DNA from: Shigella phage SFP21B
Strand: one strand, 5' to 3'
Sequence record: OQ031073
DNA length: 39,356 nucleotides
The position numbers were made by a program, and so were the translations under genes. Below the pieces are notes generated by a model, which was not told where the DNA came from, made no database searches, and saw only the letters and a program-made list of their open reading frames with translations. This document shows positions 26,875 through 31,404 of the stretch, one piece after another. How positions within the stretch are numbered: the stretch's first letter is position 1; each line of letters opens with the position of its first letter.

Positions 26875-27039
26875 ATGAGCCTTGAAGAAAAGAAGTACAT
26901 CGTGGAGCTTGAGGGTCGAGTTCAGTCCTTTGAGGTCCCGGTCTACGCTAAGTCTCTGGACGAGGCGACCCTGAAGGCTCAGGAATACGAGGACGCTGGC
27001 TTTGTTGTCGGACGCATTCACCCTGAGCGCAAGCAATAA
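26875..27039 (+). CDS. 2: gp2-like inhibitor of host RNA polymerase
   Basis: [14 protein letters not shown] ... AGFVVGRI resembles T7 gp2; start 26875 (SD GGGAGAGG), in-frame alternative 26857. Confidence 0.8.
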
Positions 27040-27057
27040 ACCCTCACTGTAGGACAA
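27035..27057 (+). promoter_or_regulatory. phage RNAP promoter variant (phi2.5-like), AATAAACCCTCACTGTAGGACAA
   Basis: core CCTCACTGTAGG (G at -3). Confidence 0.7.
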
Positions 27058-27082
27058 CCATTAACTTTAGGAGATTTACCCA

Positions 27083-27781
27083 ATGGCTAAAGAGCAACTG
27101 AAAACTTTCACCACTCCGGTAGCTGGTCTAGTAGAGCCGTATAGCTGGCTGAACAAGGCAGACACCAAGTTCAACGAGCGCGGTGAGCATAAAGTCAACC
27201 TGACGTTCGACCTGAGCGACCCGAAAGTCCGTAAGATGATTGACGTCTTACAGAAGATTCACGACGATGCGTATGCGAAAGCACTCGCAGACCACGAGAA
27301 GAACCCGCCTCAGGTTCAGCGTGGCAAGAAGCCTATCGAACCGCGTGAAGGCGACATGCCGTGGATTGAGAACGGTGACGGTACTGTTACCCTGAAGTTC
27401 AAATGCTTTGCGTCTTACTTGAAAGATGGCAAGTCCGAGCCTATCGTATTACGGTTCTACGACACCGATGCTAAACTCATCCGTGACGTCCCGAATATTG
27501 GCACCGGGTCTAAGCTGAAGGTCAAGTTCAAAGTCCTGCCGTTCAAGTGGAACGCTGCGACTGGTGCAAGCGTTAAGCTGCAACTTGAATCCTGCCTGCT
27601 GGTCGAGCTGAAAGAGTGGTCCGGCGATGGCACTGGTGGTGATGGTGGCTGGGGTGACGATGAAGACATCGGCTCTGGTGGCTACAAAGCGTCTACTGAC
27701 GGTGACTTCGGGTCTGACGACTTCAGCGAAGATGCCGATGGTGGTGATGACTCTGCGTCCGGTGGCGACTACGACTTCTAA
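27083..27781 (+). CDS. 2.5: single-stranded DNA-binding protein (gp2.5)
   Basis: 232 aa; T7 gp2.5-like (RGKKPIEPREGDMPW, NGDGT, KFKC, ASVKLQLESCLLVEL) with acidic C-terminal tail ending DF. Confidence 0.95.
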   Translation: MAKEQLKTFTTPVAGLVEPYSWLNKADTKFNERGEHKVNLTFDLSDPKVRKMIDVLQKIHDDAYAKALADHEKNPPQVQRGKKPIEPREGDMPWIENGDGTVTLKFKCFASYLKDGKSEPIVLRFYDTDAKLIRDVPNIGTGSKLKVKFKVLPFKWNAATGASVKLQLESCLLVELKEWSGDGTGGDGGWGDDEDIGSGGYKASTDGDFGSDDFSEDADGGDDSASGGDYDF

Positions 27782-27783
27782 TC

Positions 27784-28236
27784 GTGGCTGCATGGACACC
27801 AAAACGGGGGCACTCTGTGGGTGCCTACCGCTCTGGACTTGAGGCTAAGAACCAGCAGTGGCTGGAACAGAACGGCGTCAAAGCGGAGTACGAAAGCCAT
27901 TATATCAACTATGTGATTCCGGCTTCCGACCACAAGTATACACCAGACTTCATCCTTCCGAATGGCATCATCGTCGAGACCAAAGGTATCTTCGACAGTG
28001 AGGACCGCAAGAAGCATATGCTGGTGCGCGAGCAACACCCTGAGCTGGACATCCGGTTCGTGTTCTCGTCCTCCCGCTCCAAGTTGTACAAAGGGTCTCC
28101 GACCACGTATGGCGCATGGTGCGAAAAGAACGGCTTTAAGTTTGCCGACAAGTTTATCCCGGTTGAGTGGCTGAAAGAGGCGACTGTACGTCTGCCTTCC
28201 GGTATCCTCATCCCGAAGAAAGGAGCTAAGAAATGA
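27784..28236 (+). CDS. 3: endonuclease I, Holliday junction resolvase (gp3)
   Basis: T7 gp3-like (GAYRSGLE, YVIPAS, YTPDFILPNGIIVETKG, RKKHMLVREQHPELDIRFVFSSSRSKLYKGSPT); GTG start, N-terminal length aligns with T7. Confidence 0.9.
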   Translation: MAAWTPKRGHSVGAYRSGLEAKNQQWLEQNGVKAEYESHYINYVIPASDHKYTPDFILPNGIIVETKGIFDSEDRKKHMLVREQHPELDIRFVFSSSRSKLYKGSPTTYGAWCEKNGFKFADKFIPVEWLKEATVRLPSGILIPKKGAKK

Positions 28237-28457
28237 CTAAAGAAGTGCAGGTAGTACGCGAGCGCCTGACCATTGACAAAATCCCGGTGGGCTATGCGTT
28301 CATCGTTCATGGTCGCCCGGACGAAGTGTACGTGAAGATTAGCAACTCGCACGTCTTCAACCATAAGCGCCTCCAGATGCACACGACTGTGAGTGAACGC
28401 TTCAAGTATCACCTGAATCTCGTTATCGTCGAGCTGGTGGTGTACAATGGTAAGTAA
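28233..28457 (+). CDS. hypothetical protein
   Basis: 74 aa; ATGA overlap with gene 3 stop. Confidence 0.5.
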   Translation: MTKEVQVVRERLTIDKIPVGYAFIVHGRPDEVYVKISNSHVFNHKRLQMHTTVSERFKYHLNLVIVELVVYNGK

Positions 28458-28905: not shown

Positions 28906-29023
28906 GGGTGCGGAAGCGGCTGCTGCGGAAGCGGATAGCCTGCGCATCAAGTCTCTGGACGCTGGCCTCCGTGCGCGTGGTCTGGACAAGAAGGCTGAAC
29001 AACTGAAGGGATTCTTCAGCTAA

Positions 29024-29046
29024 CTTAAACACTCACTAAAGGGATG
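29024..29046 (+). promoter_or_regulatory. phage RNAP promoter variant upstream of primase-helicase, CTTAAACACTCACTAAAGGGATG
   Basis: core ACTCACTAAAGGGA (A at -10, A at -3; T3-like -3). Confidence 0.65.
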
Positions 29047-29095
29047 ACCACTTTCGGTTGTCCCTTCGTTCGCATTATTGATTAAGGAGTGACCA

Positions 29096-30799
29096 ATGTC
29101 ATATGAAGACCAAGAGCAGGACGATAGCGTCTTCCTCTACCACACCGAGTGTCCAGACTGCGGGTCTTCGGATGCCAATGGTGTTTACTCAGACGGACAC
29201 ATGTACTGCTTTGCGTGTGACCCGTCAGTCGCTTGGAAGAAAGGCGACATGGAATTGACAGAAGGTTACACGCCTTCAGGAGGTAAGAAGCAAGTGAGCA
29301 ACCTGTTAACGTGGGGCGAGAACTCAGGACGCTACGTCCCACTCCCGGCTCGTGGACTATCGGCTGACATCTGCAAGAAGTACAGCTACTGGGTAGGCAT
29401 GATGCAGGGTAAGATGGTCCAGATTGCGGACTACTACGACAGGTCAGGGACCAAGGTAGGACAGAAGGTCCGGGACGCAGACAAGAACTTCACAGCTATC
29501 GGTAGCGTCAAGAATGACCTACTGTTTGGCTCTCAACTCTGGTCTGGTGGCAAGAAGATTGTCATTACCGAAGGTGAGATTGACTGCCTGTCAGTCGCTC
29601 AGGTACAGGAAGGTAAGTACCCTGTGGTCTCTCTTCCGTTGGGCGCAAAGTCTGCGAAGAAGACACTGGCAGCGAACCTTGAGTACCTCGACCAGTTCGA
29701 AGAGATTATCCTGATGTTCGACATGGACGAGCCGGGACGTGAGGCTGTAGAGCAAGGTGCTCCGGTCCTCCCTGCTGGTAAAGTCAAGGTCGCATTCATC
29801 AATGGGTACAAGGATGCCAACGCTGCGCTTCAGGCCAAGGACTTCAGGGCGATTCAGGATGCAATCTGGAACGCTAAACCTTTCGTCCCGGCTGGGGTGG
29901 TGAGCGCCAAGTCTCTGAAGGACAGGACCCGCGAGGCAATGCTGAAGTCTGAGACTGAAGGTCTCCTCTTCTCATCCTGCACAACACTTAACGCGATGAC
30001 CCTCGGTGCGCGAGCTGGTGAGCTTATCATGGTGACTTCAGGGTCAGGCATGGGTAAGTCCACGTTCGTCCGCCAGCTCCTCTTAGAGTGGGGCAGACAG
30101 GGTAAGCGTGTTGGTATGGCGATGCTGGAGGAAGCAGTAGAAGAGACGGTTCAGGACCTCATCGGTCTGGACAATAACGTCCGTCTCCGTCAGTCCAAAG
30201 AACTGAAAGAAGCAATCCTGAAGGATGGACGATTCGACGAATGGTATGACAAACTGTTCAATGACGATAAGTTCCACCTGTACGATTCATTCGCTGAGTC
30301 CGAGGAAGACACCTTGTTCGCCAAGCTGGGCTATATGGTGGACGGTCTGGACTGCGATGTTATACTGCTGGACCACATCTCAATCGTGGTGTCTGGCATG
30401 GAAGATAACTCAGATGAGCGTAAGACCATCGACCGCATCATGACCCGTCTCAAGAAGTTTGCGAAGACGAAAGGCGTGGTTGTCGTGGTCATCTGCCACC
30501 TGAAGAACCCGGAGAAAGGTAAGTCTCATGAAGAAGGTCGCCCTGTCAGTATCACTGATTTACGTGGGTCTGGTGCTCTGCGCCAACTATCTGACACTAT
30601 CATTGCACTGGAGCGTAATCAGCAAGGTGATACTCCTAACGTTGTTCAGCTTCGTTTGCTTAAGTGTCGCTTTACTGGCGATACGGGCATTGCTGGACAT
30701 CTTGAATACAACAAGCTCACAGGCTGGCTTGAACCGACTGTCCAAACTGGTGGAAGCGGAGAAGAGGATAGCAGCTCGTGGGAAAACAACGACTTCTGA
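29096..30799 (+). CDS. 4: DNA primase/helicase (gp4A); likely internal start for helicase-only form near 29249
   Basis: 567 aa; Cys4 zinc ribbon (CPDCGSSD...CFAC), T7 gp4-like ([15 protein letters not shown], Walker [39 protein letters not shown]); in-frame ATG at 29249 with SD GAAAGG. Confidence 0.97.
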
Positions 30800-30875
30800 C
30801 CATGAGTCCTTTGACCAGTGGCAGGACCTTAACGAACGAGAGGAGCAATACTATGCGAAACTTAATCAACGGTAA
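30528..30875 (+). CDS. hypothetical overlapping ORF (gene 4.1/4.2 position)
   Basis: 115 aa open frame in an alternative frame across the gene 4 3' end; the part overlapping gene 4 is compositionally off-frame-like. Confidence 0.25.
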
Positions 30876-31386
30876 GACCCTGACCGAAGCTCAGCTTGAG
30901 CTTGGCCCGAAGGAGGGACTTGAAGTCTTCACCTCTCGCTGCACGGGCCGAACTCTTGGTAGGGCGCTGCTGTTCATCTCCACGGCTATGGTCCAAGGGT
31001 CGATTGACATTGGGCCGCTGCGTGGCAACTTGGGAGACCAAGAGGTTGACAGCACGAAGTACCAAATCACTCAGCGTCTCGACCAGATGGGCCTCGTAGG
31101 GTTCAAGCTGGAAGGTGACGTTCTGTCCTATTATCCATTCGAGGAGCACCAAGATGTTAAAGAGGTTGTGCGAGAAGTTAAAGTCCAAGTATCACCTTTC
31201 TCTGGCGAAGTGGTATCACCACGAAGCTACAGTGTTAAGCAACATCCTGAAGGACCAGCGGTTCCAGTCAGCGGCATGGAACAAATCTACTCAGAAGTGC
31301 GCGTATCATCTGGCGCGAGTCCTGTAGTTGAACCAATGGAGACTATCGAGCCTCTGGTTCCAGACATGACGCCATCCAAGCAATAA
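30853..31386 (+). CDS. hypothetical protein (gene 4.3-4.7 region); extent uncertain
   Basis: ATG with SD GAGGAG; N-terminal ~100 codons have gene-like codon usage; a second frame (31154..31327, SD GAGGAG) looks more gene-like downstream. Confidence 0.4.
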   Translation: MRNLINGKTLTEAQLELGPKEGLEVFTSRCTGRTLGRALLFISTAMVQGSIDIGPLRGNLGDQEVDSTKYQITQRLDQMGLVGFKLEGDVLSYYPFEEHQDVKEVVREVKVQVSPFSGEVVSPRSYSVKQHPEGPAVPVSGMEQIYSEVRVSSGASPVVEPMETIEPLVPDMTPSKQ

Positions 31387-31404
31387 GCCCTCACTGTAGG
31401 ATAG
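31382..31404 (+). promoter_or_regulatory. phage RNAP promoter variant upstream of DNA polymerase, AATAAGCCCTCACTGTAGGATAG
   Basis: core CCTCACTGTAGG (G at -3). Confidence 0.7.

Follow-up and report, generated by a model that had tools for sequence, protein, structure and literature searches.

Non-consensus promoters before replication genes of Shigella phage SFP21B as probable counterparts of T7 class II promoters

Shigella phage SFP21B carries twelve promoters for its own single-subunit RNA polymerase (RNAP), and the three that depart from the common core lie before gene 2.5, gene 4 and gene 5, in the block of DNA-metabolism genes. We analysed them in the window, that is, the whole stretch of 39,356 nucleotides in sequence record OQ031073, one strand read 5′ to 3′. 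Quite probably, all three sites function as promoters of the phage's own RNAP, as deliberately weakened counterparts of the class II promoters phi2.5, phi3.8 and, by position, phi4.7 of phages T7 and T3. The promoters before genes 2.5 and 5 have G instead of A at −3, a base that is never A at these two places among relatives. The promoter before gene 4 has A at −10 and A at −2, the latter inside the arm of a conserved RNA hairpin.

Twelve promoters on the coding strand

When the window was scanned with CCTCACTATAGG at up to two mismatches, 12 sites were found, all on the + strand. The match is exact in nine, with one mismatch in two (27042 and 31389, CCTCACTGTAGG) and two mismatches in one (29031, ACTCACTAAAGG). 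Shuffled sequences gave a mean of 2.65 sites at the same threshold, and 0 of 100 shuffles reached 12. An earlier sequence-only reading, which had counted twelve phage promoters, nine of them with a common core, is thus borne out. No further credible promoter was found on either strand by a position-weight matrix or by 3-mismatch scans against both consensus types described below.

These sites have the features of T7-group promoters: a ~23-bp element (−17 to +6) with a CACTATAG-type core is repeated on the coding strand, nine copies being identical over 12 bases, and the genome also encodes a single-subunit RNAP as the cognate enzyme. Promoter numbering, including +1, was set by alignment to annotated T7 promoters only. 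The coordinates 27035, 29024, 31382 and 39229, correctly assigned before together with their sequences, are −17 positions, and the matching +1 G residues are 27052, 29041, 31399 and 39246.

The alignment confirms G at −3 in the gene 2.5 and gene 5 sites. For the gene 4 site, ACTCACTAAAGGGA, the A at −10 stands, but the base described as a T3-like A at −3 is at −2 (T to A); at −3, A is the consensus of this phage, of T7 and of T3. The three variant sites were rightly placed in the DNA-metabolism block, as the genes downstream encode gp2.5 single-stranded-DNA-binding protein, gp4 primase-helicase and gp5 DNA polymerase according to Pfam.

The genome is complete, circularly permuted and T7-like, and was assigned to genus Kayfunavirus (K1F group) by BLAST against phage genomes. 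Identity is 93–96% over long stretches to Shigella phages SFP20 and SFP21A, Cronobacter phages GW1 and Dev2, and Citrobacter phage SH4. The promoters were not analysed in the published Citrobacter phage paper.

A polymerase and promoter pair of T3 type

Gene 1 (20909–23575, +) is the only RNAP gene in the genome and encodes 888 aa with Pfam domains RNA_pol and RPOL_N. The protein is colinear with T7 RNAP at 64% identity and matches T7 RNAP structures over its full length. According to published work, promoter bases −12 to −8 are recognised by RNAP residues 748, 756 and 758, and the pairings are N/R/Q with CGACT in T7, D/R/Q with ACCCT in T3, and N/N/Q with ACTAT in K1F. In the specificity loop of the window's enzyme (VWQEYRKKDTTRLDLMFLGTFRLQPTVNK...., 23126–23248, +), TTRLDLMFLGTFRLQ has Asp at the T7 N748 (T3 D749) position, Arg at that of T7 R756 and Gln at that of T7 Q758, encoded at 23165–23167, 23189–23191 and 23195–23197. 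ACCCT stands at −12 to −8 in 11 of the 12 promoters, and the gene 4 promoter has ACACT, as does T3's own phi3.8.

Judged from these residues and bases, the pair is of T3-type specificity, although the enzyme is a K1F-group protein (88.6% identical to the K1F RNAP, 91–92% to Dev2-like type-B enzymes) and not one of Teetrevirus. Genus, gene order and promoter positions are those of K1F, except that K1F is without a gene 5 promoter. Compared with the K1F pair, the window has D/R instead of N/N at 748/756, its AT-rich recognition loop differs, and its promoters have CC where those of K1F have TA at −10/−9. Compared with T3, it has the same D/R/Q and the same −12 to −8 bases, but its consensus base at −2 is T, as in T7. 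By sequence the core AACCCTCACTATAGG is therefore a natural T3/T7 hybrid, with a T3-like binding region and a T7-like −2.

The genus has two discrete types of polymerase and promoter, a T3 type (D748/R756, CCTC promoters) and a K1F type (N748/N756, TATC promoters). The former comprises the window, GW1, SFP20, Ro103C3lw, vB_CtuP_B1, the Enterobacter IJM/MII phages and contig L025, and amounts to ~11 of ~220 GenBank Kayfunavirus records; the large majority is K1F-type. When the RNAP of the window was compared with those of K1F (L004), L008, SH4 (L009) and L010, the two types had 51 fixed differences, 47 of them in the N-terminal part that binds the promoter (residues 1–371) and the other four in the specificity loop (748, 754, 756 and 766). 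Between the types all promoters differ at −16, −10 and −9, with 74–84% identity in the flanks and 94% in the cores. The T3-type genomes do not form a monophyletic group in a gene 2.5 tree, which shows the genomes to be mosaic, and the promoters nevertheless always match the resident polymerase.

Deviation at −3 before genes 2.5 and 5

The phi2.5-equivalent promoter (27035–27057, +, −17 to +6), AATAAAC CCTCACTGTA GGACAA, precedes gene 2.5 (27083–27781, +), and its −15 to −13 overlaps the TAA stop of gene 2. The promoter before gene 5 (31382–31404, +), AATAAGC CCTCACTGTA GGATAG, is at the phi4.7 position of T7, ahead of the DNA polymerase gene (31457–33628, +). Both have G at −3.

Orthologous promoters were compared across ~25 genomes in total, five from GenBank and the others IMG/VR contigs recovered by gp4/gp12 queries. 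At the phi2.5 position TATA is found at −4 to −1 in 0 of 25 (TGTA in 15, TTTA in 10), so that −3 is never A. When four further T3-type genomes were added later, their phi2.5 promoters also had G or T. Where the gene 5 promoter is recognisable, it has TGTA in 12 and TTTA in 2, again with A at −3 in 0 of 14. On the other hand, TATA is found in all 130 late promoters: phi6.5 (27/27), phi9 (26/26), phi10 (26/26), phi13 (27/27) and phi17 (24/24). The promoter after gene 1 has TATA in 25/25. The four added T3-type genomes conform to this pattern. The late promoters are invariant from −10 to +2, and those before gene 1 and gene 1.6 vary occasionally among relatives.

A non-consensus base at −3 occurs with polymerases of either type, and this despite type-specific bases at −16, −10 and −9 in every promoter. 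On the gene 2.5 tree the window and GW1, which have G, are nested inside a clade with T. Therefore, −3 does change, but not to A. As far as sequence comparison can tell, this pattern argues for maintained sub-optimal promoters rather than accidents at −3.

The gene 4 promoter overlaps a conserved hairpin

The phi3.8-equivalent promoter (29024–29046, +), CTTAAAC ACTCACTAAA GGGATG, with A at −10 and −2, lies before the primase-helicase gene 4 (29096–30799, +). It is deviant in every genome compared, TATA at −4 to −1 being found in 0 of 26. Its sequence is ACTCACT(A/T)AAGGG in T3-type phages and TATCACC(TT/TA)AGGG in K1F-type phages. In the window its 17 bases from −13 to +4 (AACACTCACTAAAGGGA) equal those of T3 phi3.8, and those from −10 to +4 equal T7 phi3.8. 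The A at −10, common with T3 phi3.8, departs from both consensuses.

An R3.8-type RNA hairpin, AAGGGAUGACC-ACUUUC-GGUUGUCCCUU (29039–29066, +), has a folding free energy (ΔG) of −16.2 and a z-score of −3.6. It has 11 bp and extends from −2 to +26 of the transcript, its 5′ arm beginning at promoter −2. The hairpin after the gene 4 promoter is kept with compensatory changes in all Kayfunavirus genomes, T3 and T7, and among 13 sequences including T3 and T7, both sides have changed at 4 of 8 consensus pairs. A conserved hairpin is thus present at the phi3.8/gene 4 junction, as in T3, where the RNase III site R3.8 is annotated at the same place, beginning at −4. Overlap with the hairpin plausibly explains the A at −2, and by analogy with R3.8 the hairpin is predicted to be cleaved by RNase III.

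The likeness to T3 phi3.8/R3.8 is close: A at −10 against a consensus C with a D748-type polymerase, a 5′ hairpin arm inside the promoter, and a place directly before gene 4. On the other hand, A at −2 is the consensus in T3 and a deviation here, the hairpin loop and upper stem differ, and the two phages are of different genera, with RNAPs 64–65% identical. Import of the promoter from a T3-like phage was considered and is not needed, because the T3-type consensus, the hairpin and one shared base (A at −10) can account for the shared core; the flanks are Kayfunavirus-like.

One K1F-type relative, L029 (IMGVR_UViG_3300045988_000160), with an N/N loop and nine TATC promoters, has a T3-type gene 4 promoter, CTTAAACACTCACTAAAGGGATG. 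Recombination probably gave this phage a non-cognate promoter, comparable to the unused T7 promoter annotated in T3.

Expected promoter strength and proposed regulation

The T7 promoter consists of a binding element upstream of −5 and a melting element from −4 to −1. According to a review, substitutions at −4 to −1 act more on initiation than on binding, and promoters of class II are the weaker ones. For strength we turned to an in vitro barcoded library of T7 promoter variants transcribed by T7 RNAP (Komura data set), and the values given here are from a part of that set. Wild type reaches 141–188, and −2A reaches 161 and 138 (82–95% of wild type). In comparison, −3C gives 83 and 53, −3T combined with a neutral −13T gives 29, and −3G in double or triple mutants gives ~9–25% of matching backgrounds. 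A non-cognate C at −10 gives ~20%. Within this part of the data, −3G and −3T have no single-mutant values and are represented only by multiply substituted variants.

By analogy with T7 RNAP, these values suggest that G or T at −3 lowers activity to roughly 10–25% and that A at −2 is near neutral. On this basis, one would expect the promoters of genes 2.5 and 5 to fall several-fold short of consensus strength; in the gene 4 promoter the loss should come from A at −10, A at −2 being nearly neutral for strength. The graded promoter strength proposed in the sequence-only reading is in this way supported indirectly, by position-specific, genus-wide conservation together with the T7 promoter variant data.

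The three sites belong to the DNA-metabolism region and follow the early terminator, a TE-like intrinsic terminator 3′ of the ligase gene (26125–26152, +) with which the middle region starts. They also depart from the late-promoter consensus, two by G at −3 and one by A at −10 and A at −2. Both features are those of class II promoters.

We propose that the promoters before genes 2.5 and 5, their binding region being intact and their A to G change lying in the melting region, would suffer in open-complex formation and initiation and not in binding. They would likely be several-fold weaker than the late promoters and might, like T7 class II promoters, yield more readily to late shut-off by gp3.5 lysozyme. 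The T7 gene 3.5 protein is an inhibitor of the phage RNAP. Its homologue is encoded here by gene 3.5 (28447–28905, +; amidase/lysozyme by Pfam), and the T7 RNAP–lysozyme complex 1aro is among the structure matches of the window's RNAP. The T7 analogy would thus predict not only lower strength than that of late promoters but also an earlier, lysozyme-sensitive shut-off.

The gene 4 promoter would be weakened instead at a specificity contact, A replacing C at −10. Its A at −2 would belong, with −1 and +1 to +9, to the 5′ arm of the R3.8-type hairpin and be constrained by RNA structure. Each weak internal promoter would then add only a modest increment to read-through of the replication genes, because no strong terminator lies between 26195 and 35451.

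More tentatively, the promoters with G or T at −3 could be a separate regulatory subclass, under selection, that determines how strongly and when the replication genes are expressed. Such promoters might act via weak open complexes that gp3.5 lysozyme silences first, and they would have been kept through a complete swap of polymerase and promoter specificity within the genus, from K1F type to T3 type or the reverse. We offer this only as a conjecture, one that is possible but has the odds against it.

Alternatives to deliberate weakening

The deviations could also be tolerated decay. If read-through from upstream consensus promoters suffices, the promoters of genes 2.5, 4 and 5 are under weak selection, and their changes are neutral or slightly deleterious and shared by descent. 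No strong + strand terminator was found between 26195 and 35451, so the replication genes do get read-through transcription as well, which fits relaxed selection and the increments proposed above alike.

Several observations speak against deliberate weakening, the first three being in line with decay. The gene 5 promoter is absent from ~8–10 K1F-like genomes and is thus dispensable in some relatives. The K1F-type L029 carries a T3-type phi3.8 that its polymerase should read poorly. The G and T states of phi2.5 largely track two gene 2.5 haplotype clades, so there were few independent events (at least two), and shared ancestry explains part of the conservation. In K1F-type genomes the −2/−3 pairs of the gene 4 hairpin are lost (CACCTTAGGG) with the 3′ UUU retained, and the RNA constraint on −2 is therefore not absolute. 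Finally, the strength estimates come from T7 RNAP, 64% identical to the window's enzyme, and those for −3G and −3T from multiply substituted variants.

However, the remaining promoter positions are kept, and in both types the bases at −16, −10 and −9 suit the resident polymerase; therefore, the sites are under selection for recognition. Moreover, −3 shifts between G and T, by transversion, and never by the G to A transition that leads to the consensus (25/25 for phi2.5 and 14/14 for the gene 5 promoter), whereas the 155 other promoters always have A. Decay is thus an unlikely account of the pattern, with some weight left to it.

Another explanation is that the deviant bases are fixed by overlapping RNase III hairpins (R3.8 and R4.7), promoter strength being a by-product. 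The gene 4 hairpin supports this explanation: A(−2) and A(−1) of phi3.8 pair with UU, and AAA at −3 to −1 pairs with UUU in T7, T3, GW1 and SFP20. T7 has A at −2 of phi3.8, in an AAA/UUU pairing, although its consensus there is T. The gene 5 leader also folds, into an R4.7-type hairpin (31390–31451, +; ΔG −24, z-score −3.9) that is homologous to the T3 R4.7 region. Promoter −9 to +1 forms its lower stem with CUAUAGGAG of the gene 5 ribosome-binding region.

RNA pairing was nevertheless rejected as the cause of G at −3. In the gene 5 hairpin this G pairs only as G·U, and the consensus A would pair better as A–U; the phi2.5 leader has no significant structure (z-score −0.03). In addition, the A at −10 of phi3.8 is outside the hairpin, and K1F-type genomes do without the −2/−3 pairs. 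It is therefore quite improbable that RNA structure alone determines the three sites.

The sequence-only reading held that the mix of T7-like ATAG and T3-like AAAG bears on polymerase specificity. Least of all can we credit the idea that such contexts reflect polymerases of differing specificity, or one whose specificity is relaxed: phi3.8 does join a T7-like A at −10 to a T3-like A at −2, in a core common to T7, T3 and this phage, but there is a single RNAP gene with D/R/Q, the determinants are −12 to −8 with residues 748/756/758, all sites are T3-type there (uniformly ACCCT in 11 of 12), and −2, where A is near neutral for T7 RNAP, is a position of melting and strength rather than specificity, so that a specificity signal in the mix is not supported.

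Consensus promoters and neighbouring sequence

The nine consensus promoters, all on the + strand, lie before gene 13 (4343–4365), before gene 17 (11628–11650), near the right genome end (17104–17126, phiOR-like), 76 nt upstream of the RNAP gene (20816–20838), after gene 1 (24328–24350, phi1.1-like), before gene 1.6 just 3′ of the TE-like terminator (26178–26200), before gene 6.5 (35434–35456), before gene 9 (38253–38275) and before gene 10 (39229–39251, phi10-like, with a GGGAGA start). The full-consensus promoter upstream of the RNAP gene is kept in all relatives. For this position the T7 and T3 annotations list host promoters and an RNase III site but no phage promoter. Its presence here implies positive feedback on RNAP synthesis.

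Extra or relic promoter candidates, such as those at 14727 and 18526, were rejected as being without critical bases. The latter belongs to a degenerate promoter-like sequence, GATAGCG ACTAACTACA GGGTCT (18509–18531; +1 would be 18526), ~650 bp from the left end, roughly at the position of T7 phiOL and without the critical C at −7. A similar degenerate sequence is found in SH4 (L009; would-be +1 at 923).

All genes are on the + strand. The record begins at the ATG of gene 10, and the natural left end is at about position 17,870. Besides the proteins of the three variant sites, Pfam identifies gp1 as RNA polymerase, gp2 as host-RNAP inhibitor and gp3.5 as amidase.

Relative to GW1 and Dev2, the window lacks ~109 bp at 28905–29023, comprising the ribosome-binding site, start codon and 5′ half of gene 3.7. 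The junction is at a short GGCTAA repeat, and the 3′ end of the gene is left just upstream of the gene 4 promoter. In L018 (IMGVR_UViG_2974581996_000001) a tRNA-Thr (CGT) gene is inserted at 9908–9986 between the gene 4 promoter/hairpin and gene 4, and L017, L027 and L039 have a different insert there.

Repeated short motifs

The interrupted palindrome GAC-N5-GTC occurs at 80 sites in the window, a ~4-fold excess, for example at 3309, 4489, 14704, 20834, 24351 and 31404, with 10 sites clustered in 17490–18287. Expected numbers are ~21 from GAC and GTC trinucleotide frequencies, 23.4 ± 3.1 after codon-order shuffling, and 28.8 ± 3.4 (maximum 38) after synonymous resampling with the proteins kept. 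For spacers N0 to N8 the counts are 8, 14, 13, 0, 15, 80, 38, 14 and 12, so that GAC-N3-GTC is absent against ~17 expected. K1F (L004) has the same counts for N5 (80) and N3 (0).

The excess of GAC-N5-GTC is 3.5–4.7-fold in all 21 Kayfunavirus contigs (L011–L029 included) and ~1–2-fold in T7 (14 sites), T3 (11 sites) and other Studiervirinae loci. No reading frame is without such sites. Their positions turn over from genome to genome, with 43 of 60 aligned sites shared with K1F, while totals keep to 71–82. The sequence is that of the restriction enzymes AhdI/EclHKI, and it is enriched here, not avoided. No explanation for the excess was found. Other palindromes of the form X-N5-rc(X), where rc is the reverse complement, are avoided: GCC-N5-GGC (0 against 8.3 expected), CCA-N5-TGG (1 against 13.3) and GAT-N5-ATC (1 against 6.2).

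The 11-mer GACTCAAGGTC is found at 21 sites with at most one mismatch, against 1.2 expected; 14 of them are in coding sequence, against 0.8 after codon shuffling. Exact + strand copies are at 14704, 20834, 24351 and 31404, and 17 more copies with one mismatch are on both strands. Each of the four exact copies forms the 5′ arm of an RNase III-type hairpin (R18.5-, R1-, R1.1- and R4.7-like), and three lie directly after promoters. In T7 and T3, AACTCAAGGTC is confined to the RNase III sites. When the literature was searched for GACNNNNNGTC together with bacteriophage, there was no match.

Discussion

The pattern is the known class II versus class III arrangement of T7 and T3, extended to the K1F group. 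As here, the T7 class II promoters (such as phi1.5, phi1.6, phi3.8, phi4c and phi4.3) are in the DNA-metabolism block after the early terminator and keep their binding region. They depart from consensus in the initiation region from −2 to +3, five with A at −2, in contrast with six identical strong promoters (five class III late promoters and phiOR). Whereas the late promoters of T7 are identical, those of this phage vary at +3 to +6. The recurrent change to G or T at −3 is also unlike T7 and T3, none of whose promoters has it.

Middle promoters are weakened mostly at −2 and +2/+3 in T7, at −1/+1 in T3 and, on our reading, at −3 in this genus. If a selected −3 subclass does exist, it would be a natural case in which selection for a non-consensus base is separated from selection for recognition. 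The variants would be ready for tuning expression from orthogonal polymerases of T3 type or K1F type.

What is gained from the finding is modest. It points to −3, and not to −2 or −1, as the place at which the K1F group weakens its replication-gene promoters. The genus also offers a clean natural experiment, in closely related mosaic genomes where every promoter has switched in concert with four residues of the specificity loop.

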